Of a stretch of 64,000 nucleotides of DNA, positions 19,500-46,810 are shown in pieces. The stretch is from a virus (Duplodnaviria; Caudoviricetes). Below the pieces are notes generated by a model. The model saw only the letters and a program-made list of their open reading frames with translations, was not told where the DNA came from and searched no databases. The stretch is from the IMG/VR virus record IMGVR_UViG_3300021387_000147; one strand, given 5' to 3'. The first letter of the stretch is position 1, and each line of letters starts with the position of its first letter. A program made the translations under genes and the position numbers.

Positions 19500-19562
19500 T
19501 ATCTTAATTATACCTTTTTATTTTACTTTTGTCAACCCTATTTTTGTAAAATTTTATTTACG
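19500..19562 (-). promoter_or_regulatory. Early promoter cassette copy 5 (box 19545-19562; TTGACA-17-TATAAT)
   Basis: Perfect sigma70 consensus; box 9 bp upstream of the -35. Confidence 0.88.
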
Positions 19563-20978
19563 CAAGAGCAAGTCCAACAATCAACAAAACCATCAAAGCC
19601 AAGTCATACAAACCACGGAACGGATGGCCTGTGAAAATATTGAGAATTCCAATTCCACGAAAAACAGCCAAAATTATTCCCATTACGAATGCCAAACCTC
19701 CAAGAGGATTTGTGGCGGAAATGATGGTCAAAACAAGTAGCGCTATAATTCCAAGCAATACTATGATGGCTGAAAGAACTTTGATTCCATCACCCTGGTC
19801 TGCGGCCGTAGCCATTTCGCCGAAACACTTGATGATTCCTACCACATGCTGAATTGCACAGAGAATGAAGAGAATTGTGAGCATAATTGCCATAGTTATT
19901 TTTCCTTTTTGCTAATGTTTTTAATGAGTTTTTTCTTTGTATTAATTCTAGAACATCTTTCAAGATAGTCAAATAAACTTTCTCTACATTCTAGAAATTT
20001 ATTATATTCTTTTTGATGGTCTTTGAAATACTGTTCGAATGTGCCCTTAAATGGCTTATAGTCAGTTGCAAATCCCATATTATTGTGATTAGGGATATTA
20101 TAAAAATAATATAAAGACTCTCGATCACGAATACTAAACTTATCTTTAAAAAAGTTTACAAAATCAATAAGATTTTTTCTACTTATATTAAAGTATGATT
20201 CTCTTTTAATTTGATCACCTGCTCGAGATTCAACAAAGCCCGTTGGCATAGTCATCCAAAAACTAACAACATTTGTAAGTTTACCATTGATTTCACGAAC
20301 TTCTAGATTAATGCCGGCTATATTTGTAGTTTCGTAATGTTTATCAACATAATTATATTGCTGAGTGTAAGCAAGTTCAATAGATGCCAAATGTGCATCA
20401 CTTTTATAGATATGCATAAAATTAAATGACTTATGGACAATAAGTGTTTTCAGCCAATCATTCATTGCAGACACAGCAGGTTTCATTTCTATTCCTTAAT
20501 TTGTTTTAAATGAGCGTAATTCCCAGAATGCAGAAAATCACGAGTAAAAATACCAAGAATAATAAACCGACAAGTTCACAAACAATAAAGCAAAGAATGA
20601 ACTTGCCAATTATGATTAAAAATTCTTTCATTACTTAGTAGCCTTTTCAATAAACTTTTCAGCAATCTTATCGATAGCGCCTTTAGTCTTAAGGCCATTG
20701 CAATCGACAGTGAGTCCACCCATGTGATCAGACCAAGGATAGCCTTCGCTATCGTAGCCAATCCAAATTTCTTCAATCATCATTTCATGCTTATCGCACG
20801 GCCAGAAGATGAAGCGGTGAGAATTGATGCAATGACAAGTGCCATTGTCAGTGCGAATGTTGAGGGTAAGTTGGTCGTTATCGACAGAAGTACCATCAAC
20901 GTTGAGGTTGTTTTTAACTGCCACAGTTCCAACAGCAGTGCGAAGTTCTTCCAAAAACATTTCCATAGTCATATTCAT
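19558..20978 (-). CDS. Membrane protein (19558) and hypotheticals (19896 with KKKLIKNISK tail; 20631)
   Basis: Packed ORFs on the coding strand. Confidence 0.6.
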
Positions 20979-20980
20979 TA

Positions 20981-21092
20981 ACCTCTTTTATTTTAACAAG
21001 TAAAATATAAGTATTTTGGAATGTTTTGGTAACCCCTTTTATTGTAAAAAGAAGTTTACAATATAGTCCAGTTATGTAAAATAATGTTTACA
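20981..21092 (-). promoter_or_regulatory. Early promoter cassette copy 6 (boxes 21043-60 and 21075-92; TTACCA-17-TATATT)
   Basis: Conserved leader and tandem boxes. Confidence 0.85.
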
Positions 21093-21113
21093 TTCCTTCC
21101 CCCGAGGAAAATT

Positions 21114-21203
21114 TAGCGCATCAGAAGCGCTTTCTGGGGCATTTTTGGCCTGGGGGATATAGTTACATGGCTAAATAAAAAAGAGCGCTCCAGAAGCGCT
21201 CTA
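21114..21203. repeat. GC-rich hairpin element copy B
   Basis: AGAGCGCT-CCAGA-AGCGCTCT stem plus conserved flank. Confidence 0.7.
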
Positions 21204-21205
21204 TT

Positions 21206-21865
21206 TTAATTGTATTTCATATCGGTATGTTTTTCTTCCTCAATCCATTCTTTTCTGAATTTGGCGGCTCTTTCACGTATCCATTTTTTTACATATTCAT
21301 CGCCAGGGTCCCTACCAATACGCTCACCTTCTAACCATTTATCTACTTCTATCTTTTTAATTTGAGCATCCATAAATTCTTTATGCTCTTCATCAGTCAT
21401 TTCTGGCATAACAATCTTCCCTCCTTAAAAAGAATAAAAGTTATAAAGCAGAATTACTTTATATCATTTATTGTTATGATTTGTTCTGATAACTTTTTAT
21501 CGTCATCATATACCATTTCATAAGAATGACATTTCAAATTATATTCTTCCAAAATCTGCTGAACTTCAGACAATGGCTTAAACATCATTTCTTCTGTCAA
21601 TTCTTGTGGAATTTCACGACTTGAATTATTGATTATTTTCACTTTCACCATATCACTCTCCTTCTTTATTTATTATTTCATAATTGTCACATGGCAAAAT
21701 ACCAATTCCACCCCATGTTCCCCATATTGTTCCAGCATCATCAATATAATTGATTATACCAGTTTTTCCAATATATTCTTTTTCAGCTGGATCTGGAATT
21801 CCTTTAAGATTTGGTGAAAGAGAAATGATTTTAATTTTTTGACCTATTTTGGGTTGCGCATCCAT
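21206..21865 (-). CDS. Three small proteins (21206, 21454, 21653; the last is DUF4314-like)
   Basis: 21653 has G.I..IDDAGTIWGTWGG.GILP. Confidence 0.55.
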
Positions 21866-22215
21866 ACGTAATATCCTCCTCCAATTTGTAATTCATTAAA
21901 ACCATAACGTTTGTAATAAAAATCCAATTCTGGCACAGCATTCAAATAGATCATATCATATTGTTCTTTTAAATCATTTATAATCATTCCTGCCAAACCA
22001 CAACGTCTTTTTTCAGGGATTGTTTCAATAGCATGAAGATAACATGCTTTATTTGACAAAGGTTCAATTAATGCAATAGTAGCAATCTTATCTGGTCCAA
22101 ATATATTATCTTGACCTACATGCACCTCAAACGCAGAATACCCTTTCATATACTGATCTATGAAAGGGAATTTTGTCATATCGAACGCCTGTCTTATTTC
22201 ATCAGGAGTCATCAT
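21844..22215 (-). CDS. GNAT acetyltransferase
   Basis: IET.PEKRRCGLAG (AcCoA motif A) and FYYKRYGF. Confidence 0.8.
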   Translation of the reverse strand: MMTPDEIRQAFDMTKFPFIDQYMKGYSAFEVHVGQDNIFGPDKIATIALIEPLSNKACYLHAIETIPEKRRCGLAGMIINDLKEQYDMIYLNAVPELDFYYKRYGFNELQIGGGYYVWMRNPK

Positions 22216-22218
22216 ATT

Positions 22219-22995
22219 TTACCACTTAAAAGTTAAAGTCCCATTCAAGTGAGTCTTATCATAAGTCCAGTCCATATCTATACCTTCTTTCTTGAAGATT
22301 TTTTCAACAGCGGATAGGTCTTCAATGTAACATGTAGGTTCATGGTATAGAGGATTTTTACATGAAATTTTCCCGCATGCAATAGGAAATGTCATTTTAT
22401 TGTCTTTACAGAAACCATCCTTCACGCAATTTCTAATCGTCTCCTTAAACTCCGCAACTATATGTTGCAAGTTATTGTTACGAGGATTGACTTTCTCTTG
22501 TAATGCGATCAGTTCATCTTTAAACATTTTTAGTTCTCCTTTAATAATTATCTTGTTTTAGAAAATAAGTATACTTGTAATCTAGATCTTTCTTCGCTAT
22601 TTCCAAAAGTTCTTTAACTTCATCAAAAGTCTCAACTTCGTAAGCAAAGTCTATATCGTCTGTCCAATATAGTTCAAATCCAATTCCAGTATATGCAGGA
22701 CGAACGTCATACAAGAATTCTACTGGATTATCACCTTTGATACCCTTTTTCTTTCTAAGTTCTTTAGTCGGATGTCTGTCAATATGATACATAATTATCC
22801 TCTAGTTAAACTTCTGTTAACACATTGCAATTCGACATTCATATACTTTTGATTATCAAGCTCCGCCTTTAAAGCGGCATTCTTATCTAACAATTCCTTA
22901 GCGAATTCCATTAAGGAATTCACCATAGAATTATCAGTATTAGGTTCTCTTGAATTTACAAAGTTTTTCATTTGTTCGAATTTCTTTGGATCCAT
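22219..22995 (-). CDS. Three small hypothetical proteins (22219, 22541, 22795)
   Basis: Packed ORFs. Confidence 0.55.
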
Positions 22996-22997
22996 TA

Positions 22998-24107
22998 TTA
23001 TACCACCTTAAATTCGTCTTTGACTTTACGCCAAATTATACCGTATACTTTAGACAAGTTATTAGACTTAATTAATTCCATAGCCGGAGCAACTATGTAA
23101 TTCTTATGATTTTTACACAAGTATTCATAGCGGAAACGAGATTCAGTAGATACCAAAGTCGCTTCAGCCGAAGCCGCAACAACTTCACGGTATACTTCTG
23201 CAACACGTTCATTGATAGACAAAGCGAATTTACGCAAGTCCACCAATTCTTCCGGAATTTCAGCAAAGTAATCAGGGTCGATGACACCTTTTTCTTCGTT
23301 GAAATGATCACGTATTTCTTTGTAGGTTATACAAGACATACGATGGAACAATTCCAAGTATTCAGCCGATTTAGCTTTTACTTTAAAACCATTCTGGAAA
23401 GTAATCACAAATCCTTCGTTATTGCCGTCCATTTTGGAAGCGAATTCAATACATTCGTTTATGTTATTGAATTCATATATTTTCACAAAACGCACGCCAA
23501 TAGATTTAGCAACTGCTTCCAATTCAGAAACAGAGTATTCACGGTGATTTTTGTCGAATACAGACAAAAGCACTAAGCCTTCATAAACGTATTTCACAAC
23601 ATGTAAGTCACCTTTATACACGATTTCAAAACAGTAGGTACAAGACTTATCCAATTTAGACAAGTCAACATTGTCTTTCAACCACTGATTTGCCCAGAAG
23701 GACTGATCTGCGATAAAAGAACCTTGAGTTTTGATTATCCATTGACCTTCAAAGTTAAACAATATCCCTAAGGACCCGTCAACTTTTTCCATTGCGGTGA
23801 AGGAAGGAGTCATGCGAGGTTCAAAATGCGGAATACAAGACAAAGTCTTTCCAATCTGAGCTAAACCATCTTGACAATAAATTTCTTGATAGTTGAAGAA
23901 TTTATCGAAAGGATGAGCAACAATTTCACCAGTAGTAGAATTGAATACAATTCCACGACATTGCAAAGTCACTTCATCCCAATGACCTTCATAGACAGTA
24001 GAAAGCGAATACTTGAAACCGCACAAGACGCCATTCGGATGGCGATGCATAGTTAACCAACCTTCTTTTACGTATTCACAACAAGTTCTAAAGTCTAACA
24101 TAATCAT
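22998..24107 (-). CDS. rnlA: RNA ligase 1 (T4 RnlA family)
   Basis: CRGIVF, PFDKFFN, EKVDGSLG (motif I), FEIV, EGFVI, KVKAKSAEY. Confidence 0.9.
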   Translation of the reverse strand: MIMLDFRTCCEYVKEGWLTMHRHPNGVLCGFKYSLSTVYEGHWDEVTLQCRGIVFNSTTGEIVAHPFDKFFNYQEIYCQDGLAQIGKTLSCIPHFEPRMTPSFTAMEKVDGSLGILFNFEGQWIIKTQGSFIADQSFWANQWLKDNVDLSKLDKSCTYCFEIVYKGDLHVVKYVYEGLVLLSVFDKNHREYSVSELEAVAKSIGVRFVKIYEFNNINECIEFASKMDGNNEGFVITFQNGFKVKAKSAEYLELFHRMSCITYKEIRDHFNEEKGVIDPDYFAEIPEELVDLRKFALSINERVAEVYREVVAASAEATLVSTESRFRYEYLCKNHKNYIVAPAMELIKSNNLSKVYGIIWRKVKDEFKVV

Positions 24108-24112
24108 TCCTT

Positions 24113-25105
24113 TTATAAATTTTCTTCAATAATTTTTTCAGATATTTTGTCTAGTTTTTCTTCTACTTCAACCGCTTTTTCCTTTTCAGGCGTAATGCCA
24201 TCAATATCAAAACGGTCAAAATTTGTAATCATTCTTTTCAATTCTTCAACCGGGAATTTCGAAATCATTTCTCCAATTACCGGCTTTTTATTTTCTTCAG
24301 CCATAATTAACCATCAACTTCATATTCGTCCATCTGAACGTCGATATAAGTATCACCATTTCGTTCATCCTCATATCGCTGTTCTGCCTTTTCCTTATTA
24401 AGGTAAGTAGCAATGACAGACCTATCTCCACCAGAATATGGAATTATTCCAGTGATTTGATAAACTATATCATTCATTTTTTACCATCCAAAGTAATCTT
24501 TACAGAGCTTTTGTGCATAGCTCTTGGAATTCCAAGAAGCTGCGATTGAGCCGGGTCTCGGCATCATAATCGGCATGATGCTGTCAAAGTACTCAGCCAT
24601 CTTACGACCTTTCATATCATACTTTGTCTTCAGAACAGACTTAATTTCTTTTTCAAGGGATTTTGCAGTCATCATAGCCATATTTATATCTCCTTATAAA
24701 TTACTTAATTTCAGCTTCAAAGTGGATGAATTCACGAGCATAAGACCAATTCTTACCAGTCTTCACATCGACACACTGCCAAGGATAGCGCTTATTCCAA
24801 TCGAAGCCAACAATACGCATGTGCTTCGGACGACGATCGTCTGTCGGGAAAACCTTACCAAACGGATCCAAACCAGGAACACCGCACTTTGTCATTTCTT
24901 CATCAATCATCTGCTTTTCGAAGGGAGTCAACTTGCGAGAACCATCAGCGGCAAGTTCATGAAGGTCAATCTTGTAAGTCAGTCCTTTGTCATTAAAGGA
25001 ACAGGTTGCAGGAGTGACACACATATTGTGAGACTTAGCCCATTCAGCGATGAGAGTGTCGAGTTCATTGTGGAGGCGGACGCAAGTTTCTTTATTCATA
25101 TTCAA
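24113..25105 (-). CDS. Small early hypotheticals (24113, ~24308-24477, 24481, 24701)
   Basis: Packed ORFs behind promoter cassette copy 7. Confidence 0.55.
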
Positions 25106-25118
25106 TATCCTTTAGTAA

Positions 25119-25229
25119 TCTCTTTTATTTTAACAAGTAAAATATAAGTATATTTGGCTCATTTGGAAACCCTGTTTTATGTAAAAAAACGTTTACATTA
25201 ACCTCCAGATATGTAAAAAGGTGTTTACA
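25119..25229 (-). promoter_or_regulatory. Early promoter cassette copy 7 (boxes 25180-97 and 25212-29; TTTCCA-17-TATATT)
   Basis: Conserved leader and tandem boxes. Confidence 0.85.
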
Positions 25230-25440
25230 AAACACCTTCTATTTGACATTTTTTGACAGATTTTACATTAAAATCAATAAAACCATTTTGCGATATTAAG
25301 CACCCATACGAAAACGCTTCCGGCTCAGAGTCCCAATATTCTATATTTTCATCATCCGGATTTTCTGTAAATCTGCCATCTTTTAATGGATATGCAGTTC
25401 CATGAGGAAAATCAAATTCAACAGTAAATCGTTCTAACAT
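25225..25440 (-). CDS. Small acidic hypothetical protein
   Basis: Overlaps the clpP stop; its own stop lies in the box. Confidence 0.55.
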   Translation of the reverse strand: MLERFTVEFDFPHGTAYPLKDGRFTENPDDENIEYWDSEPEAFSYGCLISQNGFIDFNVKSVKKCQIEGVL

Positions 25441-25952
25441 AATACTCCTATTTTATCAATGAATTTATATTTTTTAGCTTCAGTAGCACTCATATAATAA
25501 TCTTTTGACATAAACTTATTAATATCTGACTTCTTTACTTTTCCATATTTGTTTAAAATATCAATCAATTTATCAGTCGCTATATTTATTTCTGCTCTTT
25601 CAATCGATTTATCCAAACCAGTTGGGTCATCATAATAAGGTTTATGTATCATAATTCTAACAGATGGATATGCATATCGATGGCCAGGTGAACCAGAGAA
25701 TAAAATAAAACTTGCCATAGAACTTGTAGAAATTCCTACAGTTGTGACATCAATTCCTTTTGATTTAGCATGTTCAATTAAATCTACAATAGCCAATCCT
25801 TCGTCAACATCTCCACCTACTGAATTCAAATATATTATAATTGGCTTACCTTCATTAATAAATTCACAAAGTTGTTTAACATATTTGGCTCCCGATTTCT
25901 GAGTAATTTCCTCATTGATCCAAAGTCTATTTACGTCAATTTCTTTCTTCAT
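25434..25952 (-). CDS. clpP: ClpP-family serine protease
   Basis: IYLNSVGGDV, SSMAS (catalytic Ser), IMIHKP (His), DYYMSATEAKKY.FID. Confidence 0.88.
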   Translation of the reverse strand: MKKEIDVNRLWINEEITQKSGAKYVKQLCEFINEGKPIIIYLNSVGGDVDEGLAIVDLIEHAKSKGIDVTTVGISTSSMASFILFSGSPGHRYAYPSVRIMIHKPYYDDPTGLDKSIERAEINIATDKLIDILNKYGKVKKSDINKFMSKDYYMSATEAKKYKFIDKIGVLC

Positions 25953-25969
25953 CTTTACCTCTAAAGGTA

Positions 25970-25998
25970 AATGTAATAAAAATTTTTACAATTGTCAA
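25970..25998 (-). promoter_or_regulatory. Sigma70 promoter for clpP (TTGACA-17-TACATT)
   Basis: GGGTTGACA -35; 17 nt spacer. Confidence 0.7.
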
Positions 25999-26063
25999 CC
26001 CAGACCACACGATAAAAGTCTCAACTTCTGTTGAGACACTATCTTTATTTGGATGAATTCCAA

Positions 26064-26323
26064 TTATTGTTTTGTAATAATGAAAGCCCAGCCTTCAGTA
26101 TTAAACATATAACGGTGGCCATCCAAGGTTTCCATTACAATCGTATGAGAACCAATTGTATAAGTTTTAGCCTGATATTCTACACAAGAAGATGCTTCAG
26201 GACATCCAATTGGACATACTTTAATTGGCGTATATGATCCATTACGTGTTTGAACTTGTTTGTCACCACATTCATCACATCCAAATAAACAGAATGCAAT
26301 CAATAATAAAAGTATCTTTTTCA
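26064..26323 (-). CDS. Putative lipoprotein (start likely MKKILL)
   Basis: MKKILLLLIAFCLFG-C lipobox-like signal. Confidence 0.6.
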
Positions 26324-26328
26324 TGTTT

Positions 26329-26697
26329 TTATTCCTTCCAATAGCCATAAAATCTGGCAAAATCATTTATATGATCTGATATGTTTCCTTTATAGTCGTA
26401 TTTTCCTTGACAACCATCTTCTAATTCTCTTATCCAGTTCATTTCACAATGCATGTTGTAAATCATTTTATCATACTTTTCCAACTGGTCATTGTAATAT
26501 TGCAATTCAGCTGGTAAACGACCTAATTTATTCAATGATACAGACAACATTGCAGGGTTAATTTGATTCTTCTCAAAATAGAGCTTTTTACGGATAATAA
26601 ACTCACAACGCTCTTTTTCTAGAGTAGAAATCTGAGCCATTGTCAGCATTTTCCATTTTTCTATTAGAATTCTATTATAGTCTGGATAATTCAACAT
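26329..26697 (-). CDS. Hypothetical coiled-coil protein
   Basis: Translationally coupled to the pilin gene. Confidence 0.55.
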   Translation of the reverse strand: MLNYPDYNRILIEKWKMLTMAQISTLEKERCEFIIRKKLYFEKNQINPAMLSVSLNKLGRLPAELQYYNDQLEKYDKMIYNMHCEMNWIRELEDGCQGKYDYKGNISDHINDFARFYGYWKE

Positions 26698-27257
26698 TAC
26701 TTACATTTATCCTTAATACAGAAATCAACTAAACTTTCTGCAGTATTTTCTCTTGTGCATTTCTTAATGCATTTAATAAATTCTTCTTTACTACCTTGAA
26801 TTTGAACTTCTTCTACAGGTTTTGTTGGCACAATCTTTGTAATAGAATCCAACTTCTTTTCATATTCAGCAAGTAATTCTTGTTTTAACTTTTCTGTATC
26901 AACATTTGAAACTGTCTGCTGAACAACAGGCTTTGGCTGTTCAATAGGCTTTGGTTGTTCTGCGGCTTTCTTTGCTCTCTTTTCTACTCTATATTCTGTG
27001 ACAAGTTTCCATGCCCTTTCATGATTGTTTAAACACCTTTCCATGTTTACTGTGCAAAGACTATCAAGAACATTTATCTTGCATTTGCCAGGATGTGCAT
27101 AACACATATCTTTATAAATTTCAGGTGTTTCAACATAACAACGGTCACCTTTTGATTCACAAATCATATTAAAAAGCTTAGGTACTGCAACAGCGGCAAG
27201 AATGCCCATGATTACAATTACGACCATCAATTCAATTAAAGTAAATCCTTTTTTCAT
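26697..27257 (-). CDS. Type IV pilin-like protein (class III signal) with Cys-rich C-terminal domain
   Basis: MKKG/FTLIELMVVIVIMGILAAVAVPKLF: prepilin cleavage site, E5 and P22. Confidence 0.9.
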   Translation of the reverse strand: MKKGFTLIELMVVIVIMGILAAVAVPKLFNMICESKGDRCYVETPEIYKDMCYAHPGKCKINVLDSLCTVNMERCLNNHERAWKLVTEYRVEKRAKKAAEQPKPIEQPKPVVQQTVSNVDTEKLKQELLAEYEKKLDSITKIVPTKPVEEVQIQGSKEEFIKCIKKCTRENTAESLVDFCIKDKCK

Positions 27258-28173
27258 TCGTCACCTTCCTTAATTAAAACTACCCATTCTCCAGAACAAG
27301 TTATATGACCTTCCTTTTTAGTAGATGGAGTTATCTTTCCATGACATCCAACAGAATACCAGAGAGGATTGTCAAATGTAGTTCCCCATGTAGCCATTCC
27401 AATTTCAAGTCCTGAACTAATTTGTCTCTTCAAATAAATTGGATAACCTACGCCAAATAATTCCAATGCAGGTCTTCCATGTTCAGGAACTCCATCTGTT
27501 GTAATTTTTCTCTTATCAATGACAAGTGAATCAATTAAAGCACCTTCACACTTTGGAAGATTATACGTTTCAAATGAGTTGCTAACGTATACCGTGTCAT
27601 GAACTACAACCTTCTTGACTTTCTGCCTTGTCTGTGTTGAGTCTTTTTCTGTTCCACTTCCAATGAACATGCCACCCAATCCAGCGAGCATAAACAAGAT
27701 AGTCAGAATAAGTACCTTTTTAAAATCCATTATCTTTTTCCTTTGATTTTAATTATCCATTCACCTGCACATTCAGAATAAGTATCACTATCAGGGTCAT
27801 CTTCATCGTATGGAATGTCATACATTTTTCCATTACAAAGAATTGCATATTCTTCGACACTATCTACATCGAATGTTCCATCAGCAAATTGAACTGAAAT
27901 GGCAGTAGTACCCTTATGTGTCTCCAGCGTATCCAGACGCGCTCCAAATGCGTTAGAATAAGAGACAGCGTTTATATACTGGATTCGCTTAACTTCTTTA
28001 TAAAGCGTATCATGGACGAATGTGGTATCTCTTACAACAGTCACAAGAGTGTCCATTTTCTTCATTGAAGTTTCATAACATTCATCAATCTTCTTAAGAA
28101 TTGTATTTGAAAAGACAATGATAGCAACAAAGATCGCTGCGAATAAAATTATATGTTGATATTTAACGTCCAT
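27254..28173 (-). CDS. Two paralogous membrane-anchored proteins (27254, 27730)
   Basis: N-terminal TM, VHDT[VL]Y linker, shared Y...C.GK...C.GEW[VI][VI].IK C-terminus. Confidence 0.7.
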
Positions 28174-28514
28174 TATTTAAGCCTTCTACAGTTTTCTCTG
28201 ATACAAAAATCAATTACAGATGAAGAAACATTATTTGCCTTGCATTCAGCTACACATTCATCAAATTCATTATCTTCTTTTACAGGTTCCTCAATAGGTT
28301 CTTCAACATGTGTATTGACTGGCTGAGGTGCAACTACCGGCTTATCTCTAAAAACAAGTGGTTCATCTCTAAATACCATTGGTTCACTTGGAACAGATGG
28401 AGCTGGTTTTACTGGAGTAGTTTCTTGTTTCTTTTTGCACGTACCACAAAAACAACATGGACCAGCGAAAACAAATGATGCAGTAAGAGTTAAGATTAAA
28501 AATAGTTTCTTCAT
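28173..28514 (-). CDS. Secreted Cys-rich protein sharing its C-terminal domain with the pilin
   Basis: Signal peptide MKKLFLILTLTASFVFA; EPxVFRD repeat; EF..C...C...N...S..DFCI...C. Confidence 0.7.
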   Translation of the reverse strand: MKKLFLILTLTASFVFAGPCCFCGTCKKKQETTPVKPAPSVPSEPMVFRDEPLVFRDKPVVAPQPVNTHVEEPIEEPVKEDNEFDECVAECKANNVSSSVIDFCIRENCRRLK

Positions 28515-28587
28515 TTGTAATTCCTTTGTTAAAAAGAAAAAGCCCTATCAAAGTTTTTCAACAATGTAGGGCTTTCAAAGATTTTAA

Positions 28588-29862
28588 TTACTTATTGGAC
28601 AACTTAGAAGTCAAATCCATAAGCATGTTCAGACCAACAGCGTCCATAGCATTGCTTGCGCCATTCTTACCATCACCACCAGTCATCATGATTTCTGGTA
28701 CAAGTGGGTGAGAGGACTTAGCAAGAGCTTCTGCAACACCAACCTTAGTCTTATATTCCCATTCAGCACGTTCCTGAGGAGTCAAACCTGCAGCGACCAA
28801 TGCTCTATTAGCCTGAGCTTCTGCTTCCTTTTCAGCCTTAATCTTCTTAGCAACTTCAATTGCCTTTAGAGCTTCAAGACGAGCAACTTCCTTTTCACGT
28901 TCAGCATTCAAAATAGCAACTGCCTTTTCCTTTTCAGCCATAGTCACTTCAGTCATCTTCTGAACTTCCTGAGTAGCCTTAGCTTCTGCAATCTTTGCAT
29001 CACCTTCAGCCTTTGCAGTAATAGCCTTCTGCTTAGCAGTTTCTGCTGCGGTTGCATTTGCTACACGCTGCATTTCACGTTCCTTAACAATATCCAACTG
29101 TTGCTGAGCCTTAGGATCCAACTTTACGTTCTGAATTTCCAACTGCTTTACAACAATACCATACTGAGTAATTGGAGACTTCTTAGTGATAATTCGATGA
29201 CCATCCTTATCTAGCTTCAGCTTAGTAACACGGTATTCCTGAACTTCAGCCTTCTTAACGACCTTACCAGTGGAATCAACTTCATCTTCGCCAGCCTTTT
29301 CCTTAAGTACTTCAATTGTGGTCAAGTATTCACCTTCAACGAGCTGGTCTTCAGCAAGACGACGGAATTCTGCAATCTTTGTAACCTTTGCTTCTTCAGC
29401 GGTAAACAATGGAGCGGTCTTACGAACTGCAGAGAGAACAGCATTTCGAACTAGATTATGCTTTACACCCTTATCACTACGCTGGTTCTTATGAAGTTCA
29501 ATCAACTTATCACAGTCGGTTGGAAGCTCATACATAAGATAACCAGAAATATCTGCGTTTGCATTTCGAGATAGCGTTACAGAAATGTCATCTTCATCAT
29601 CTTCATCGCCTTCCCAACCTTCACCGTTCACCTTTTCATTAGAACTATTGAAATAGAAGGACTTTGCGAGGTCATACTTATAGATGGATGCGAAGCCCTT
29701 GAAATAAAGACCCTGACCCTCTACGCATGACAGCGTTCCGAATGGAGACTGCTTAATGAGCAATTCAGTTGACTGCTTATAGCCCACCATCTTTCCAGCG
29801 AAAATGCCAAGAAGAATGAGCACGATTACGGCAAGAATGCCGAGAACTTGTGTCTTTGTCAT
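28588..29862 (-). CDS. SPFH/Band-7 (flotillin-like) membrane protein
   Basis: N-terminal TM, SPFH-like core (QYGIVVKQLEIQNV), Ala/Glu/Lys coiled coil, VP.IMM.GG tail. Confidence 0.75.
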   Translation of the reverse strand: MTKTQVLGILAVIVLILLGIFAGKMVGYKQSTELLIKQSPFGTLSCVEGQGLYFKGFASIYKYDLAKSFYFNSSNEKVNGEGWEGDEDDEDDISVTLSRNANADISGYLMYELPTDCDKLIELHKNQRSDKGVKHNLVRNAVLSAVRKTAPLFTAEEAKVTKIAEFRRLAEDQLVEGEYLTTIEVLKEKAGEDEVDSTGKVVKKAEVQEYRVTKLKLDKDGHRIITKKSPITQYGIVVKQLEIQNVKLDPKAQQQLDIVKEREMQRVANATAAETAKQKAITAKAEGDAKIAEAKATQEVQKMTEVTMAEKEKAVAILNAEREKEVARLEALKAIEVAKKIKAEKEAEAQANRALVAAGLTPQERAEWEYKTKVGVAEALAKSSHPLVPEIMMTGGDGKNGASNAMDAVGLNMLMDLTSKLSNK

Positions 29863-29897
29863 ATTATGTTTTTCCTTTTTTGTTTATTGTTTGATTT

Positions 29898-30720
29898 TTA
29901 GTTTAAGTTTGTTGTTTCGTTAACTTCTGTTACCTTATATGCAGGTTCACCCCACATTTCCCAATTACGTCTCCACTTTTCACATTCAAGTTCAGATTGC
30001 TTGAAAATTTTAGTATCGACGAAATTACATACTGAATGCGCTACTGCATTTACTGCCTTTTCAGTTACTCTAGGATTAGGATCAGCCTTTACCTCAGGGA
30101 GAATCTTTGAGAACTGTTTAAGCATCCAAAGAACTGGAATTCCGATTACTTTGTAGACAAAGCGACCTACATAAAGTGCAATGCCGTACAGAGTAAGAAA
30201 TAAACCAAATCCACCTACGTTAATTCTTGTTACAATCTTATTCATTTGTCTTTACCTCTGAATATTCAATCCATTTACATGTATATCCATATATCATATC
30301 AGCTTTTGGCCAAACGTCAGTAAGTGTAAATGTTCCAAGCGTATCTGGAAGTTTAGCCTTTGCATTCCTTGGACAAACAATCCACATGATAGATACTTTG
30401 TTTTCAACTACTCCATCATAAGAGAAACTGTCATACCAACAATTTGCGAATTCCTTCTTGTCCTTAATTGAAGACCATGCCTTAAATGCAGACTTTGAAT
30501 CGCATTCATCTGGACGAGTGATTTCTCGAATTACTGGCGGAACATTTGTTGAATCATCGTATACAATATCATTCAATGCCTTTTTAGAATTCGTTTCCTT
30601 TTCCATATTGCATACATAAACAGCAGAAGCGAGAACTAAAATTCCAAAAATAACAATAAAAGCCTTAAGAAAGAATGACTTGATTTCAGCTTTTGTTTTT
30701 TCATACTGCATCATAGTCAC
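29898..30720 (-). CDS. Two membrane-anchored hypotheticals (29898, 30238)
   Basis: N-terminal hydrophobic helices. Confidence 0.6.
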
Positions 30721-30723
30721 TCC

Positions 30724-31449
30724 TTACTTCATATCCGGCACATAAAGGATAGTCGGGTTGTCCTTATGCACATCAAGCATTTTCATGTTCTTAAGAGTTG
30801 CAGACTTTTCCCAGAGTTGCTGGAAAGTCAGCTTATTGAACGGCTTGCACACGATATGCTTACCACTCTTAGTCGGCACAACGAAAAATTCAGACTTGAC
30901 AGCATTGCGTGCTTCTTCCGCACTGAGTCCAAGGTCACGATATGCCTGAATTCGCTTATCATACGGCTGACAATCCAAAATCATTTCCTTGATTTCTTCT
31001 TCGTAAGGCAGATATTCCTTATCGAGGTCGACAATCCAAGTCTTGTCCTTTCCTGCCTGGCAACACTCGCCACATGCAGAAGCAACAAGATGGAATGGAG
31101 AAGAATAAGTTTCGCCAGATGCACACTGTTCAGCAATGTGCTTCATCATTTCAAGTGCAATGTTCTTGTAATTACGCTTATTGAGGCGGATATATGCTCG
31201 CACATTGAACATATTGCAAAGCGCAATAATATCTTCCTTCACATCTTCAAGGTGCTCAGGGGACTTAATCAGATAGTCCTTAATAGAGCGAGAGTGCATA
31301 TTGCCATGATACTTCGGATCCTTAACACCATTCTTCAGAGGATCATCAGCCTGACGGCGAAGAAGCTGAACGTAGTAGCAATCGCCATGGTCACGGTCAA
31401 TCATCTGCTTTTCAATGTAGTTCTTGATGAGTTCGAAGTTATCAACCAT
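30724..31449 (-). CDS. Conserved phage protein of unknown function
   Basis: MVDNFELIK..YYVQLLRR..RAYIRLN.R..WIVDLD..PTKSG.H....PF..KDNPTILY pattern, familiar from large phages. Confidence 0.6.
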   Translation of the reverse strand: MVDNFELIKNYIEKQMIDRDHGDCYYVQLLRRQADDPLKNGVKDPKYHGNMHSRSIKDYLIKSPEHLEDVKEDIIALCNMFNVRAYIRLNKRNYKNIALEMMKHIAEQCASGETYSSPFHLVASACGECCQAGKDKTWIVDLDKEYLPYEEEIKEMILDCQPYDKRIQAYRDLGLSAEEARNAVKSEFFVVPTKSGKHIVCKPFNKLTFQQLWEKSATLKNMKMLDVHKDNPTILYVPDMK

Positions 31450-31458
31450 TCTTAAATT

Positions 31459-31541
31459 CCTCTTTAATTTCTTTTAACAAGTAAAATGTAGTTAATTTTT
31501 GCTGTTTTGTCAACCCTTAGTTTTGTAAAACTTTTTTTACA
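31459..31541 (-). promoter_or_regulatory. Early promoter cassette copy 8 (box 31524-41; TTGACA-17-TACATT)
   Basis: Leader TTTACTTGTTAAAA conserved. Confidence 0.85.
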
Positions 31542-31728
31542 GTTTCTTATGGGTATTTCCGGCGATAATCAAATCGGCAAGCGGAGAAATAACAGCAATC
31601 TGATAGAGCATATTAGGCCAACGCTTTTTCATATTGTCAATAAAATGGACGGCAGTGAAAATATCGTCAGCAGTATTGAACTGAGTTATGGCTCCGTCCA
31701 GAATTTGGTATTTGATTTGAAAGTGCAT
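31537..31728 (-). CDS. 63 aa protein forming a single-gene unit between two cassettes
   Basis: SD in the cassette leader; stop inside the next box. Confidence 0.65.
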   Translation of the reverse strand: MHFQIKYQILDGAITQFNTADDIFTAVHFIDNMKKRWPNMLYQIAVISPLADLIIAGNTHKKL

Positions 31729-31735
31729 TGTTTGA

Positions 31736-31856
31736 CCTCTTTTATTTTAACAAGTAAAATATACCAAAAAAGAAGGGTCTTGGAAACCCTTCTTTTTGTA
31801 AAATTATGTTTACAATAGCCAATTTTTTGGCTTTTTTATGTAAATTTTTGTTTACT
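31736..31856 (-). promoter_or_regulatory. Early promoter cassette copy 9 (boxes 31797-31814 and 31839-56; TTTCCA-17-TATATT)
   Basis: -35 lies in an AAAAGAAGGGT/ACCCTTCTTTT hairpin. Confidence 0.85.
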
Positions 31857-32385
31857 TTTCTTCTTTCCAGCGTCCACAAGATTTGAATTCTGGGCATGAA
31901 TGTAAATATTGACAATTTGGAACTAGAACATCCTCAAATTCTGGATTTGTTTTTAGGACTTCATCTCTAATCATGCGCATAATTTTCTGTGCATTTTTTG
32001 ATGCCATTCCACAAAGACGTTTACGTGCCATAAACATCAATTCTTGTGCATTGACCCACATTATATGGGAAACTGGATGACCTTGTGGTTCTTCATAACG
32101 GTCATATTTGTCTTGTCTATCATTTCGCTGAGACTGAACGAAATGTTCTGCACCCATCTTGTGACGGACAAAACAAACTGAATCACAATAAGGAATATCC
32201 ATCTTAATAATAAACTGCAAATAACGAATTGGAGAATGCTCTGATTTTAGATATTTCTTCTTTAAGTCAAGAGACATTTCCTTATCCATAAGATAATCTT
32301 TACCAACTGTATTCAATGCCAAACGTTTTACCCATTGCCAATCTTCATCAGTTGGATGCTTCAATACTTCAATTTTAAAATCCAT
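31852..32385 (-). CDS. thyX: Flavin-dependent thymidylate synthase-like protein
   Basis: SEHSPIR, FVRH, QSQR, N..EL....RKRLC..A, P.C.Y...CPE. Confidence 0.75.
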   Translation of the reverse strand: MDFKIEVLKHPTDEDWQWVKRLALNTVGKDYLMDKEMSLDLKKKYLKSEHSPIRYLQFIIKMDIPYCDSVCFVRHKMGAEHFVQSQRNDRQDKYDRYEEPQGHPVSHIMWVNAQELMFMARKRLCGMASKNAQKIMRMIRDEVLKTNPEFEDVLVPNCQYLHSCPEFKSCGRWKEEK

Positions 32386-33286
32386 TTATACTCCTTCACG
32401 ATATACGATTACTTCTTTGTTAAAATCAATAGTTTTTAAAAGGTATTTCATATTAGAGATGAATTGTTTTGTTGTTGCAAAATAAAAACCATCATAAGTT
32501 ATTTCATCATCTCGTATAAATCTCCACCAATCATAACGTTGCCAATTAAGTTCAACATCTTCATAAGTCACACCATTATAAGCTTTTTCTGCAGCGGCGA
32601 CTAACTTTTCTATATCTTTCTTTTTGATTCTTACATAACTATTCTTTAAATCTTCTTGACTAAAGATAGTTCTCATTTTCATTTGAATAGGAGAATAATC
32701 TTTAAATCTTAATGCTACTGAATATGAATTCAAGTATTCAAAGATTTTTGTTATTATGATATATTTCTTTCTATCTAATGCTCTATATTCTAATTCTTTT
32801 TCTCTATCTTTAAAAGATACTTCACCACCTACATCAGATTTATCTGGATCTTTCATCAATGCTTCTATTTGATTGTCAACCAGTTTTAATCTTCTTTGTA
32901 GTGCAGCAACATCATGCCATCTTTCTTTTGATACAGTGTAGAATACAGTTTCCAAATCAGTCGTCCTTGTTTATTATATTTTCATTTATATATATTTGAT
33001 TTAATCTTTCTACACCTTCGGCATACGAATATATCTGACCATCAATATTCCAATTAGAATCTACAAAATTTAACGTATGTATATCATTATCTTTTGTATA
33101 GAATGTTATAGATTTAATCTTATCTATTGAGTAATCAGTACCACCAACACATACATAAGCGGTTGATAATGTTGCCTCATAGTTTATCATATTGTCTTTT
33201 AATTTAAATGCATTTACCTTACCACAAACATGTTCGATAATTTCATGACCATTGTCTGTATAAGAATAATTAAATTTTGCTATCAT
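32386..33286 (-). CDS. Two hypothetical proteins (32386, 32957)
   Basis: Packed ORFs. Confidence 0.55.
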
Positions 33287-34172
33287 GTTTTATTACCTCG
33301 TCCCAAGCATGTTCTATAAGTGTATCGACTAAATAATTATTATCAGCACAATACGACATTGTAAAATCAGGAACAGAATATCCTCCATAATAAGGGTCTT
33401 TTCTAACATCTTTGTCATACCATTGATGATCAACTGCAGCAGAACCTCTTTCGATTTTCCAATTCCAATCAGCTTGAGATTTTAAATGATAATGATAAAG
33501 TCTTACAGGTCCAGTATAATCAGTAATACCATAAGTTGTTTTTGATACACCAGAACCTACAACTTCTGATACACGTATTCCATTCATCCATGGAACATGA
33601 CCATTTTCTTTATCATTCTTTTTATAGAATTTATATTTTACACCACTATGATAACGGAAAAATGCTTTTCCTTGTGTGGTATAATCATTACGTCTATAGT
33701 AATTATCTTTTATTAAACTTCCATTTCTTGATGATGGAAGATTTTTTGAACTCATCAATATCTGTGGTACCAATACACAATCCAAGTGTCTAAACTGACT
33801 ATCTAACGCAGCTTCCAAATTTGGATAACTAATTACATCCATTGCTGAATGCTTATACCACAAATACTCGTCATCATCCAAGAAATAAATTATATCATTT
33901 TCTTGGAAACCATATCTGTTATCTTTCAATATTTCTTCATATAACTTGTATTGATTTGGCCAACCTTCAATCTTATCATAAGTGACATTTAAATTTACAT
34001 CTTTATTATAAGGCATGCCTAATTTCAAATAATTACTTACAAAGTCAAATATAGGTATTGATGAATCATTATCGATAATATGAATGAAACATCCTAATTT
34101 TAAATACCATTTGAACCAATCTTTAAAGTCTAAATAATTATACGATTTTGTTAAACAAATTACATGAACCAT
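33270..34172 (-). CDS. Glycosyltransferase (GT-A fold, GT2/GT92-like)
   Basis: W..WYLKLG..IHIIDNDS, YFLDDDEYL, LYHYHLKS..DW..KIERG. Confidence 0.75.
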   Translation of the reverse strand: MVHVICLTKSYNYLDFKDWFKWYLKLGCFIHIIDNDSSIPIFDFVSNYLKLGMPYNKDVNLNVTYDKIEGWPNQYKLYEEILKDNRYGFQENDIIYFLDDDEYLWYKHSAMDVISYPNLEAALDSQFRHLDCVLVPQILMSSKNLPSSRNGSLIKDNYYRRNDYTTQGKAFFRYHSGVKYKFYKKNDKENGHVPWMNGIRVSEVVGSGVSKTTYGITDYTGPVRLYHYHLKSQADWNWKIERGSAAVDHQWYDKDVRKDPYYGGYSVPDFTMSYCADNNYLVDTLIEHAWDEVIKHDSKI

Positions 34173-34881
34173 TTATACGCTCTTTAGCTATTTCAAAATA
34201 AGTTAATTCTTTTTCTATTCCAATAAAGTTTCTATTTAAGTTTTTGCATGCAACTCCAGTTGAACCGCTCCCCATACAATTATCTAATACAGTATCACCT
34301 TCATTTGTAAAGGACTTGATAAGATATTCTAATAGTTCAACCGGTTTTTGAGTTGGATGAACTATGTGATGCTTATCTACTCTATTAAATCTTAATACTT
34401 GTTTTGGATAACGGGTACCATCATCTATATATTCTGTAGGTTTGATTTGATTATCTGAAGATAACTTACCAAACTTACCTTTTACAGTATTCTTAACAAG
34501 CTTTCCTTCATGTTTATATTTCTGAGGATTGTAAGTGCATTGTTTCTTATAGAATACTGATATAGTTTCAATGTTCTTTCCAAAACGTTTTTTTAATTGT
34601 AATACGTTTGTTGGAGCTTCTTTTTCCCAATATAAATCGTATTTGTAATCTTTTAAATTACTCATCCTAAGCATAGATGAGAAAGGTTCTTGTCCAAACA
34701 AAACAATTGCCGCGTTTGACTTGCAAACACGATTGTATTCTTTCCAAAGATCTTCAAATGGAATTACTACATCCCATGGACATTTCGTTGTTCCATAGGG
34801 TAAATCGCATAAAACCATATCTACTGAATTATCAGCGATAGATTTCATTGCGTTTAAACAATCATCATTAAATAGATTCAT
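34138..34881 (-). CDS. DNA methyltransferase (N4-C/N6-A, beta class)
   Basis: SVDMVLCDLPYG, HPTQKPVELLEYLI, VLDNCMGSGSTG, FIGIEKE. Confidence 0.92.
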   Translation of the reverse strand: MNLFNDDCLNAMKSIADNSVDMVLCDLPYGTTKCPWDVVIPFEDLWKEYNRVCKSNAAIVLFGQEPFSSMLRMSNLKDYKYDLYWEKEAPTNVLQLKKRFGKNIETISVFYKKQCTYNPQKYKHEGKLVKNTVKGKFGKLSSDNQIKPTEYIDDGTRYPKQVLRFNRVDKHHIVHPTQKPVELLEYLIKSFTNEGDTVLDNCMGSGSTGVACKNLNRNFIGIEKELTYFEIAKERINGSCNLFNKIV

Positions 34882-35514
34882 CTAATTTTGATAATACACT
34901 TGAATGAACTTCAGTTCTTGCTTTCCAAAGTCCTAGTTTTACTAATTCTTCTCTTAGTTTAGAAAATGAAACTGTTACAGGTAAAAATAAATCATCTACC
35001 TTTTCAATTGTTGCTTCTTCTTTTTTTAAATCATATTTAATAAAATATGTTTCTAAACCTTTCTTAATTTTAGTTGTTTGGAAATCATAACCGTTGCATT
35101 CAATTAAACCTTCAATATTCTTGAATTTCCAAATTGCGAATGCATCAACTGTCATCATACTTCCTATACTTCCTCGTTTAATACTTGGCAGAAGTCTATA
35201 AAATCATTATAGAAGTCTTCTATATTTTTCTTATACGCTTCTGTCTTACTATACCATTTTGAATTTTTCTTTAATTTAGAATAATCAAATATCTTAATGA
35301 CATTACTTTTATCTTCTTTAACTTCATTAAAGTGTTTACGTGCACATGGAATAAACCTTTCCAAATTTGTGACATTCAGAAATTTCACAAAAATTTCTCG
35401 ATTTTTTACGTTATCTCCTTCTACAAAACATGTAATAGGCAGATTATAATCATGTGCTACTGTGTTTAATTTAGACGTTAATTGTAATAATACATTATCC
35501 CAAGAATTAGACAT
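34868..35514 (-). CDS. Two hypotheticals (34868..35158; 35164..35514, start re-called to MSNSW)
   Basis: AGGAG SD and promoter upstream of 35514. Confidence 0.6.
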
Positions 35515-35533
35515 TTTTTTACTCCTGTTTGAA

Positions 35534-35573
35534 AATATAATAAAAACACTGGACTTTGTCAACCAGTGTTTTT
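35534..35573 (-). promoter_or_regulatory. Terminator hairpin with TTGACA in its loop, then 17 nt and TATATT (late-to-early boundary)
   Basis: AAAAACACTGG-TTGACAAAGT-CCAGTGTTTTT-AT-TATATT. Confidence 0.8.
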
Positions 35574-35592
35574 AAAATATGATTCTAGTTTT

Positions 35593-36360
35593 TTACTTTT
35601 CAGAAACGTCGATAGTGTCCAATTTAATTACTGCATCACGAGATGTATTCAAATCATTCTTTTGGTCAGCTATATCCTGCTTGATTTCATCACGCTTTAG
35701 AATTAATGGCTCTTTCAACTTTCTAATTAAGTATGCACTTGTTTTAATATCCAACTTTTTACAGATATTTTCTACCAAGAAAATTGCATTCTGCACATTC
35801 TTAAATTCCAAATCTTCAGGTTTCAAGATTTTTCCATTAAAAATAAGTTCCACACATTTCTTAACTTGTTTATATTCAACTAATTGGTCTTCAGATAAAG
35901 TAGATACTAATGAAGCTGTTGCTTGCATTACTTCATCTAAATCAAACATTGTTCCTGCTGCAGGTTCATCAGGCAAAGTCACATCATCTTTGTTCTTCTT
36001 TCCAAATGTGAAGTCTGGGTCGTCTTCATGACCGTCTAAATCCAATTCTTCTTTTTTCTTATCATCTTCGGATTTACCGTCATCTTCCTCTTCACCACTT
36101 TCTCCATCTGATCCGCCATCACCGCCGGCTCCACTGCCGCCTCCTCCAGCATCATCACCAAATGGATCTCCTCCACCTGCATCATCTCCGAATGGGTCAT
36201 CACCTCCACCCATATCATCTCCACCGCCCATGTCGTCTCCGCCACCGGCGTCATCTCCTCCAAAGTCATCTTCTTCAAATAAGAACTGTTTATCAAGTTT
36301 GTCTGATAAAGTAATAGTCTTACTTGTTATTTCACCTAAAATATCGGTTAAGTTTTTCAT
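35593..36360 (-). CDS. Acidic Gly/Asp low-complexity late protein
   Basis: GGDDMG and GGDDPFGDDAG repeats. Confidence 0.7.
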   Translation of the reverse strand: MKNLTDILGEITSKTITLSDKLDKQFLFEEDDFGGDDAGGGDDMGGGDDMGGGDDPFGDDAGGGDPFGDDAGGGGSGAGGDGGSDGESGEEEDDGKSEDDKKKEELDLDGHEDDPDFTFGKKNKDDVTLPDEPAAGTMFDLDEVMQATASLVSTLSEDQLVEYKQVKKCVELIFNGKILKPEDLEFKNVQNAIFLVENICKKLDIKTSAYLIRKLKEPLILKRDEIKQDIADQKNDLNTSRDAVIKLDTIDVSEK

Positions 36361-36371
36361 ATTACTCCTCT

Positions 36372-36671
36372 TTAATCTAAAACCTCGTCTAATCTAGAAA
36401 GTATAACGTCCTTATTTGAATTTCTAATATTGGAACAAGTAAGATAATTAAAAAATGTTCTTGCTGTTTTTGTATTAGAACGAGTCAACATAATTAGTAA
36501 ACCCTCTTTATCTTTATTTATGATCATTTGGACGAGAGTTTCCATTAAATCTTCCATCTTTTCACGAGTAATTTCGATATATGAGACAGAAAGCTGTTTC
36601 TTGTACTTTTCAAAGAAACGTTCAAAATACTCATCTCTATTTTCGATTTTATAAAAAACTGAATACAACAA
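36372..36671 (-). CDS. Hypothetical protein
   Basis: ORF within the late operon. Confidence 0.55.
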   Translation of the reverse strand: MLYSVFYKIENRDEYFERFFEKYKKQLSVSYIEITREKMEDLMETLVQMIINKDKEGLLIMLTRSNTKTARTFFNYLTCSNIRNSNKDVILSRLDEVLD

Positions 36672-36683
36672 CTTATATACCTA

Positions 36684-37229: not shown

Positions 37230-37246
37230 AAATTAACCTCACTAAG

Positions 37247-37254
37247 TATTTATA
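37247..37254 (-). promoter_or_regulatory. T4-type late promoter TATAAATA
   Basis: Exact consensus before a GAGG SD. Confidence 0.7.
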
Positions 37255-37255
37255 A

Positions 37256-37774: not shown

Positions 37775-37777
37775 TTT

Positions 37778-45703: not shown

Positions 45704-45738
45704 TATTTATAAACAAAAAGTGGCCTTATCGGCCACTT
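45704..45738 (-). promoter_or_regulatory. Terminator hairpin (45716-38) followed by late promoter TATAAATA (45704-11)
   Basis: AAGTGGCC-loop-GGCCACTTTTT then TATAAATA. Confidence 0.75.
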
Positions 45739-46767: not shown

Positions 46768-46810
46768 TATTTATAACACAAAATAAAAAAGATGGTATTA
46801 ACCATCTTTA
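46768..46810 (-). promoter_or_regulatory. Terminator (46786-46810) and late promoter TATAAATA (46768-75)
   Basis: AAGATGGT-loop-ACCATCTTTTT then TATAAATA. Confidence 0.75.

Follow-up and report, generated by a model that had tools for sequence, protein, structure and literature searches.

A host-like SPFH protein and a chimeric pilin mimic at the core of a candidate envelope-remodelling operon in a giant tailed phage

Phage-encoded relatives of type IV pilins have been described in prophages as well as in virulent phages. The prophage protein P-FimU is built into the pilus, which stays functional, and prevents phages from adsorbing, and virulent phages carry PilA-like genes, some of them truncated to 60 residues, for which either incorporation into the pilus or inhibition of its assembly has been proposed (Sztanko et al. 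2026, PMC12952977). Here we describe an operon in which a pilin-like protein is found in different company. It lies on the minus strand at positions 26018–31513 of a 64,000-nucleotide stretch of tailed-phage DNA (Caudoviricetes; IMG/VR record IMGVR_UViG_3300021387_000147; this whole stretch is called the window), and its core consists of a chimeric pilin mimic, whose N-terminal helix copies that of Fibrobacter pilins, and a protein of the SPFH/Band 7 family that is closely related to one encoded on Fibrobacter chromosomes.

Small membrane, periplasmic or lipoprotein products that close the infected cell to other phages are familiar from T4 (Imm and Sp) and T5 (the lipoprotein Llp). To our knowledge, no phage SPFH protein has a known function. 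In the rumen, Fibrobacter plays a key part in the degradation of fibre, and we are aware of almost no information on its phages. An earlier reading of the same DNA, referred to below as the original prediction, had described a pilin signal, recurring Cys motifs, a pair of paralogues, an SPFH protein and a lipoprotein, all of which were recovered where it had placed them. The observation holds up: the feature is coherent and its conservation good, and the theme of a pilin mimic in partnership with an SPFH protein is possibly a general one. Tentatively, and at a level of confidence that falls somewhat short of even, we read the operon as an early-expressed cassette that would jam type IV filament assembly and thereby exclude superinfecting phages; the processing of the mimic, its competition with host pilins and the exclusion are the steps we infer.

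The pilin mimic and its Fibrobacter counterparts

The class III signal of the pilin mimic (open reading frame, ORF, 26697–27257) had been called intact, and two profile models confirm this above their cutoffs: PF07963 (N_methyl; E = 7.9e-9, 35.2 bits, cutoff 21.2) and TIGR02532 (37.1 bits, cutoff 16.3). The protein belongs to a family with 1,370 matches, many of them on contigs of 235–417 kb. Within an alignment of 76 members the signal residues G4 (G-1), F5 (F+1) and E9 (E+5) are at least 90% conserved, and both this alignment and a second one of 17 members show invariant Cys residues at positions 33, 40, 52 and 75, a DTV(Y/F)V strand motif, and terminal residues C163, C167, C180 and C185 that are invariant or almost so. 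An AlphaFold2 model calculated from the 76-row alignment (mean predicted local distance difference test score, pLDDT, 73) is all-helical. A long helix at the N-terminus is followed by a compact bundle of helices (residues 39–100, pLDDT 83–91), disordered linkers and, at the end, a helical hairpin (residues 156–184, pLDDT ~82). Foldseek aligned the N-terminal 33 residues only, with FimA of D. nodosus (PDB code 3sok, 55% identity), and neither Foldseek nor a VIA search against the PDB (best Z 4.6) returned a pilin-type α-β head, nor did any equivalog model score above its cutoff. As the structure searches match nothing significant beyond the N-terminal helix, only the signal and the membrane helix make the protein a pilin; on the evidence of the model, it lacks the globular head.

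A search for the donor of the pilin N-terminus, one of the checks that the original prediction had suggested, led to Fibrobacter. When N-terminal motifs of the family were scanned against 185,579 genomes (one per species), 79 loci were found, 70 of which belong to Fibrobacter or Fibrobacteraceae. The others comprise a phage-like contig, a pilin of Psychromonas and a small number of contigs from metagenome-assembled genomes (MAGs) assigned to other bins; three of these MAG proteins (L041, L075 and L092) were read and are probably mis-binned, since their sequences are of the Fibrobacter type. The matching Fibrobacter proteins are ordinary pilins of 140–200 residues. Gly-1 and mature residues 1–25 are the same in the phage protein and in Fibrobacter pilins (26/26 residues), only 10–13 of the 26 codons agree, and the G+C content at third codon positions is 0.28 for the phage versus 0.61 for the host, which together indicate that the identity has been kept by selection and does not stem from recent transfer. 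The likeness stops near residue 36, and the heads show no similarity to each other. At the DNA level, positions 20001–40000 of the window were searched against 151 Fibrobacteraceae genomes; 113 of them gave at least one match, and for most of these the matches include the 5′ end of the pilin gene. Matches of the CRISPR-spacer type were not seen in this search, which returned gene homologies instead. Judging from these sequence matches, Fibrobacter is most likely the host of the phage. One of the Fibrobacter loci (L084:5878-9495) carries a lone pilin gene between an isocitrate dehydrogenase gene on one side and glycosyltransferase genes and a gene of the sulfatase family on the other. The sulfatase family includes pilin phospho-form transferases, and this neighbourhood may hint at pilin modification.

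The machinery that would process and assemble such a protein is present in Fibrobacter. A prepilin peptidase (Peptidase_A24) was found in all five Fibrobacter genomes searched, along with 6–10 T2SSE ATPase and 2–4 secretin matches per genome. The original prediction had stated that the phage carries no pilus ATPase or platform gene. For the ATPase, and likewise for the prepilin peptidase, this holds in the window, where queries with PilD and T2SSE-type ORFs of Fibrobacter gave no tblastn match (PilC, the platform protein, and the remaining 235 kb of the 299-kb genome lay outside this search), and a 132-kb relative also has no peptidase or ATPase homologue. Because none was found in the window, the pilin mimic would depend on the host machinery.

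The SPFH gene and its pilin-like partner

The SPFH protein of the operon (ORF 28588–29862) matches PF01145 (E = 1.2e-7, 32.4 bits, cutoff 23.6) and phrog_11908 (E = 1.9e-47), and has a transmembrane (TM) helix at residues 6–23. Among the 151 Fibrobacteraceae genomes, 23 encode an SPFH protein that is 61–77% identical to it, and the whole gene is matched in 23 genomes with 67–71% nucleotide identity. The first gene of the operon has DNA matches in the same range (67–71%) in about 10 Fibrobacteraceae genomes, and in three or more of these it is a neighbour of the SPFH gene. In the host, the SPFH gene is chromosomal, lies 3′ of an α/β hydrolase gene, and is convergent with an HD-domain gene and a homologue of the first operon gene (49% identical). 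These last two form a variable island beside the SPFH gene on Fibrobacter chromosomes L129 (8557-13121), L130 and L131, which is absent from L132; in one genome the island by the host gene also holds DUF285, β-helix and RelB-like genes. A basic tail of about 20 residues precedes the TM helix of the host protein and hints at an N-in topology, which would place the SPFH domain in the periplasm. In a maximum-likelihood tree the phage and Fibrobacter proteins form one tight, unresolved group, far from crAss001 gp91 and gp165 of Vibrio phage River4, a topology that is compatible with transfer in either direction.

The SPFH gene had been taken to merely flank the genes of the other exported proteins, a view that has to be revised, as it accompanies the pilin mimic as a conserved partner and is apparently of host origin. 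An examination of operon conservation in related phages, also suggested by the original prediction, showed that in 9 of 11 lineages (the window, L002–L005, L033 and L036–L038) the SPFH gene lies directly upstream of the mimic, separated from it by no more than three small genes; in L006 and L035 it is not found in this position. The pair is also seen in unrelated phages. In three of 21 unrelated viral contigs selected only for a pilin start, a short pilin-like ORF is directly preceded by a short but genuine SPFH gene (PF01145, E 1e-32 to 1e-39). Conversely, 6 of 20 viral loci selected for SPFH have a pilin-like ORF on the same strand 17–930 nt downstream (3/17 when only non-seed loci are counted, at distances of 17–60 nt), and these 20 loci contain no pilin-like ORF anywhere else. 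The SPFH-linked ORFs are mostly headless, with 43–60 residues, and have a Cys-x5-8-Cys loop just past the helix that can be compared with C33-x6-C40 of the window protein. Among 50,697 cultured phage records, 204 contain an SPFH gene of the short type and 13 a pilin-like gene; by a rough estimate, the rarity of both makes a chance adjacency very unlikely. The pairing is not universal, as a pilin-like neighbour was not found beside the SPFH genes of the cultured phages DLP3, nACB2, CSP3 and D14B or beside those of crAss001 and River4. A literature search found no paper on an SPFH and pilin-like gene pair. New here are the close kinship of the SPFH gene with a Fibrobacter chromosomal gene, its coupling to a pilin mimic, and the occurrence of an SPFH gene with a headless pilin-like partner in unrelated phages.

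Two accounts of this pair differ in how much weight they give to the pilus. In the first, the SPFH protein would be a membrane scaffold with no link to pili: its ring would lend stability to the inner membrane over a long infection or divide it into compartments, the helix of the pilin type would be a small client or partner of the ring in a role like that of NfeD, and the class III signal would serve for insertion and trimming only. The adjacency of SPFH and pilin-like genes in unrelated phages, including the headless forms, is what this account would lead one to expect, the SPFH genes of crAss001 and River4 are also flanked by genes for small membrane proteins, and the phage SPFH gene is a near copy of a host gene that sits in a housekeeping context. 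Against it, the exact 26/26 identity of the host helix despite synonymous divergence exceeds what a generic anchor needs, four cultured SPFH phages have no pilin-like neighbour, and no NfeD-like domain was detected; NfeD was not matched by any operon protein in Pfam or NCBIfam searches, the conserved SPFH neighbour being the pilin-like gene. On balance we regard this account as somewhat unlikely. The second would treat SPFH and pilin-like helix as a widespread two-gene phage device, not described before, in which an SPFH ring baited with a pilin-like protein switches off type IV filaments (pili, competence, type II secretion). The bait would draw host pilins or the pilus platform into an SPFH ring in the inner membrane, and Fibrobacter phages would have elaborated it with exchangeable periplasmic Cys-hairpin modules. 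We consider a device of such breadth unlikely.

Operon layout, shared modules and expression

The phage is a giant tailed phage of about 299 kb: the exact pilin-like protein is encoded on a contig of 299,371 bp that was recovered from two samples, and close strains come from assemblies labelled as sheep rumen. Every gene of the window lies on the minus strand, and the GC content is about 32%. Genes for a T4-type RNA ligase, a ClpP-like protease, a DNA methyltransferase, head-closure and adaptor proteins and a tail fibre are also encoded, from which we take it to be a phage with T4-like features and not a crAss-like one. A crAss-like identity was considered and rejected, as the SPFH gene alone resembles crAss001 (32–34% protein identity) while the other genes are T4-like.

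By its sequence signals, the segment 26018–31513 looks like one transcription unit consisting of a sigma-70-like promoter, ten genes and a terminator. Its features, all on the minus strand, are given below in 5′ to 3′ order.

31485–31513, minus: sigma-70-like promoter (TTGACA, 17 nt, TACATT; score 10/12), followed by the conserved leader TTTTACTTGTTAAAA (31472-31486)
30724–31449, minus: first gene, a 241-residue cytoplasmic protein (phrog_14949), which accompanies the cluster in L002, L033, L036 and L038
30238–30720, minus: membrane protein of 158–160 residues with an N-terminal TM helix, a strain-specific accessory missing in L002
29898–30245, minus: membrane protein of 115 residues, a strain-specific accessory missing in L002
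28588–29862, minus: SPFH/Band 7 protein of 424 residues with an N-terminal TM helix, SPFH domain and Ala/Glu/Lys-rich C-terminal part
~28530–28575 (approximate), minus: hairpin (7-bp stem, long loop) and T-run 3′ of the SPFH gene, a possible attenuator, seen by eye and not called by the terminator scan
28173–28514, minus: Sec-signal protein of 113 residues with a Cys cluster, Pro-rich linker and terminal C-x3-C-x12-C-x4-C hairpin
27730–28173, minus: TM-anchored protein of 147 residues with DTxY/V strand motifs and a C-terminal β-domain containing C.G...C.GEW
27254–27730, minus: TM-anchored paralogue of the preceding protein, 158 residues
26697–27257, minus: chimeric pilin mimic of 186 residues with a class III signal, host-identical α1N, Cys-rich helical bundle (residues 30–100), linker and terminal 4-Cys hairpin (residues 156–185)
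26329–26697, minus: helical protein of 122 residues without a TM helix (its L002 counterpart is 84% identical)
26064–26324, minus: lipoprotein of 86 residues with lipobox LFGC and a Cys-rich, β-type mature part (lipobox read from the sequence, size from gene callers)
26018–26037, minus: intrinsic terminator (8-bp stem and T-run) closing the operon
25970–25998, minus: next promoter, of the same type, serving the ClpP-like gene

Nine consecutive products were classed as membrane or exported proteins. The proposal of an envelope operon at 26064–31449 therefore stands as far as one unit of exported proteins is concerned, with the reservation that 30724–31449 encodes a cytoplasmic protein and does not belong to the envelope. 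None of the ten operon proteins has a match in PADLOC.

The genes between and after the SPFH–pilin pair are drawn from a shared set: TM proteins with the C.GEW motif, Sec-signal hairpin proteins and the lipoprotein, which has homologues in the corresponding cluster of L002, L005 and L036. Two routes of export for the 4-Cys domain had been proposed, a pilin anchor and a Sec signal, and the tail common to the pilin mimic and ORF 28173–28514 bears this out (BLASTP, 11/28 identical, E = 2e-7). The motif C-x3-C-x12-C-x4-C at the extreme C-terminus is found in 2 of the 127 minus-strand ORFs of the window, compared with a mean of 0.02 in 200 shuffles, and the exact motif recurs in 16 ORFs of 9 related phage loci, always right at the C-terminus and attached to both pilin anchors and Sec signals. 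Structure prediction of this domain, likewise called for earlier, gave a helical hairpin as described above. In a comparison with Cys-stapled helical hairpins of the α-hairpinin type, its Foldseek matches to vicilin-buried peptides are weak (E ~9–10), and its Cys spacing is C-x3-C...C-x4-C. The assignment of ORFs 27254–27730 and 27730–28173 as TM-anchored paralogues could be reproduced (BLASTP E = 2e-4). An alignment of 28 members of this C.GEW family shows invariant C112, G114, C134, G136 and W138, and the family is represented by only 26 clusters among 1.84 billion proteins. Its structure model consists of a TM helix, a disordered region with the DTV motif, which is common to pilin mimics and C.GEW proteins, and a confident β-domain; against the PDB (VIA) and BFVD the long N-terminal helix alone was matched, in comparisons that barely probed the β-domain (80–144). 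In members P0167, P0172 and P0175 the C-terminus is extended by 30–70 residues ending in FDG(V/I)I, and the extension of P0177 is shorter. An identity of the C.GEW proteins with NfeD was considered and has no support from Pfam or NCBIfam. The hairpin, C.GEW and lipoprotein components would seem to be fast-evolving, lineage-specific periplasmic add-ons.

The terminal hairpin raises the further possibility that the pilus is redecorated, such that the chimeric pilin, once incorporated into host pili, would show its tethered 4-Cys hairpin as a new adhesin and alter sticking to fibre or cells. The model has a compact helical head and a long linker, which a filament surface could tolerate, Fibrobacter pilins have been implicated in adhesion to cellulose (PMC3079729), and P-FimU enters pili without loss of function (PMC12952977). 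However, Sec-signal proteins also release the same hairpin free into the periplasm, the heads have no similarity to host pilin heads, and the headless relatives of other phages display nothing. Since the SPFH-linked relatives of 43–60 residues cannot decorate a pilus, decoration is less likely than jammed assembly, and we judge it very improbable.

Comparison with the close strain L002 (~95% nucleotide identity) shows that the operon evolves quickly. Flanking genes are 96–99% identical at the protein level versus 70–92% for operon genes, and two operon segments have been replaced, one of them by an opposite-strand ORF. The latter segment (L002:5337-5594, minus strand of the locus) encodes 85 residues and takes the place of the Sec-signal 4-Cys protein, one C.GEW protein and half of the other; it may be a small mobile or nuclease-type gene. 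The stronger divergence and the replacements point to a fast-evolving interaction cassette.

The promoter with its leader is one of a class. On the minus strand of the window this class has eight copies (seven exact leaders and one with two mismatches), where 1.6 leader matches are expected by chance, with leader sites ending at 7847, 16694, 21005, 25142, 31486, 31759, 52507 and 54399. Its consensus reads TTTTACA, GGGTT(T/G)(A/C)CAA, 17 nt, TA(T/C)ATT, then TTTTACTTGTTAAAATAAAAGAGG and ATG, and it probably marks the early transcription units of the phage. The T4 late-promoter word TATAAATA, by contrast, is found 4–18 nt 5′ of the genes for the tail fibre (63916) and adaptor (46763) and of two genes of the structural region (45699 and 37229), at minus-strand positions 63935-63942, 46768-46775, 45704-45711 and 37247-37254, respectively; it is not enriched overall (12 found versus 13 expected), and it is absent before the operon. 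A sigma-70-like promoter in front of the operon, where TATAAATA is lacking, speaks for early or middle expression.

This difference in promoters also bears on the idea of a cassette for lysis or its timing, in which type-II-anchored proteins and the lipoprotein would act as spanins or antiholins and the SPFH protein would guard the membrane until lysis. An SLT lytic transglycosylase (PF01464) with an N-terminal membrane helix is encoded two to three genes upstream of SPFH in three relatives (L033:1865-2623, L036:3874-4629 and L038:4056-4820), which also have small TM proteins before SPFH, and in crAss001 the SPFH gene gp91 is two genes away from the peptidoglycan hydrolase gp89. The combination of an inner-membrane anchor and a lipoprotein recalls spanin pairs, in which the i-spanin has such an anchor and the o-spanin is a lipoprotein. 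Yet the operon has no peptidoglycan hydrolase, endolysin or holin-like gene, and the window lacks the SLT gene. The promoter is sigma-70-like and not of the TATAAATA class of the structural genes, and the lipoprotein is not Pro-rich and is separated from the anchored proteins by a gene of the cytoplasmic type. Nor would a lysis function give any reason for copying a host pilin helix. We therefore hold lysis to be a very unlikely purpose of the operon. Elsewhere in the window, minus-strand ORFs 17596–17949 and 19558–19893 encode small multi-TM proteins with three and five predicted helices, for which a holin-type nature is possible; the product of 19558–19893 weakly resembles a 4-TM protein whose gene comes shortly before that of SPFH in L038 (tblastn E = 0.005).

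Possible action of the cassette and comparison with known systems

The interpretation that we favour is interference with the assembly of type IV filaments. The helix of the mimic copies the host exactly, its head is foreign and the SPFH-linked relatives are headless, a combination that points to an action in the membrane on the host type IV filament machinery. The operon would remodel the envelope through its core pair, the phage copy of the host SPFH protein and the chimeric pilin with host-copied signal and helix. The host prepilin peptidase would cleave the mimic, which would then sit in the inner membrane among host pilins and compete with them for the assembly machine of the type IV pilus or of the type II secretion pseudopilus. 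As it has no proper head, it would halt or derail filament growth, and the SPFH ring would probably organise or confine this process in the membrane. The infected cell would lose functional pili, so that superinfecting phages that depend on pili would be excluded and progeny would be kept off debris. Competitive jamming would explain these features most economically, with superinfection exclusion as its likeliest benefit.

Several observations have to be set against this interpretation. It leaves the role of the SPFH protein without explanation, and the exclusion step presupposes that Fibrobacter pili serve as receptor for this phage or a competitor. The operon is probably expressed early or in mid-infection, a timing that is read from the sigma-70-like form of its promoter only, and the transglycosylase genes of the three relatives suggest some connection with lysis. 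Neither DsbB nor VKOR was detected in five Fibrobacter genomes, so the many Cys residues may bind metal instead of forming disulfides. Lastly, the genome of F. succinogenes S85 has type II secretion genes and does not contain a complete set of pilus genes (PMC3079729), for which reason the targeted filament may be the type II secretion pseudopilus.

If jamming of filament assembly is indeed the function, an early switch-off or rewiring of host pili or secretion would affect fibre attachment as well as competition between phages in the rumen. The matches to host pilins and SPFH proteins indicate a host for a family of uncultured phages of 235–417 kb, and the recurrent pairing with a pilin-like gene is a first testable handle on the function of phage SPFH proteins, which are common (204 cultured phage records).

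In their effect on the infected cell, the proposed operon products would be comparable to T4 Imm and Sp and T5 Llp. No similarity of sequence or fold to these proteins was found among the operon proteins, and their proposed action differs in that it would proceed via the type IV filament pathway. As regards the SPFH scaffolds (HflK/C and QmcA–NfeD) and crAss001 gp91 (phrog_11908), the window protein has the same N-terminal TM helix and SPFH domain, followed by a C-terminal part that is likewise long, helical and charged. Such scaffolds are often paired with a small membrane protein, which in the window is pilin-like and not NfeD, and the closest relative of the window protein is the Fibrobacter chromosomal SPFH protein (up to 77% identity), crAss001 gp91 being only 32–34% identical.

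The pilins of Fibrobacter itself (for example Fisuc_0251-0253, 0956 and 1016-1017; Suen et al. 2011, PMC3079729) have the same Gly-1, the same residues 1–25 and a leader of the same type, MKK(Q)G. They run on as GMIAKSKASE and have a Cys pair near the C-terminus, whereas the phage protein departs from them at residue 26 and is predicted to be all-helical. P-FimU of F10-like prophages of Pseudomonas and the PilA-like proteins of Xylella prophages and of virulent phages likewise have a class III signal and make use of the host pilus machinery (PMC12952977). Their genes are highly diverse, and protection against pilus-dependent phages has been proposed for them and, in the case of P-FimU, shown (PMC12952977). 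These proteins resemble a host pilin over their full length, whereas the window protein copies the signal and α1N only and has an unrelated head. Also unlike them, the pilin mimic described here, which is ascribed to a phage of an anaerobic rumen bacterium, is coupled to an SPFH protein and to exported proteins that share its modules.

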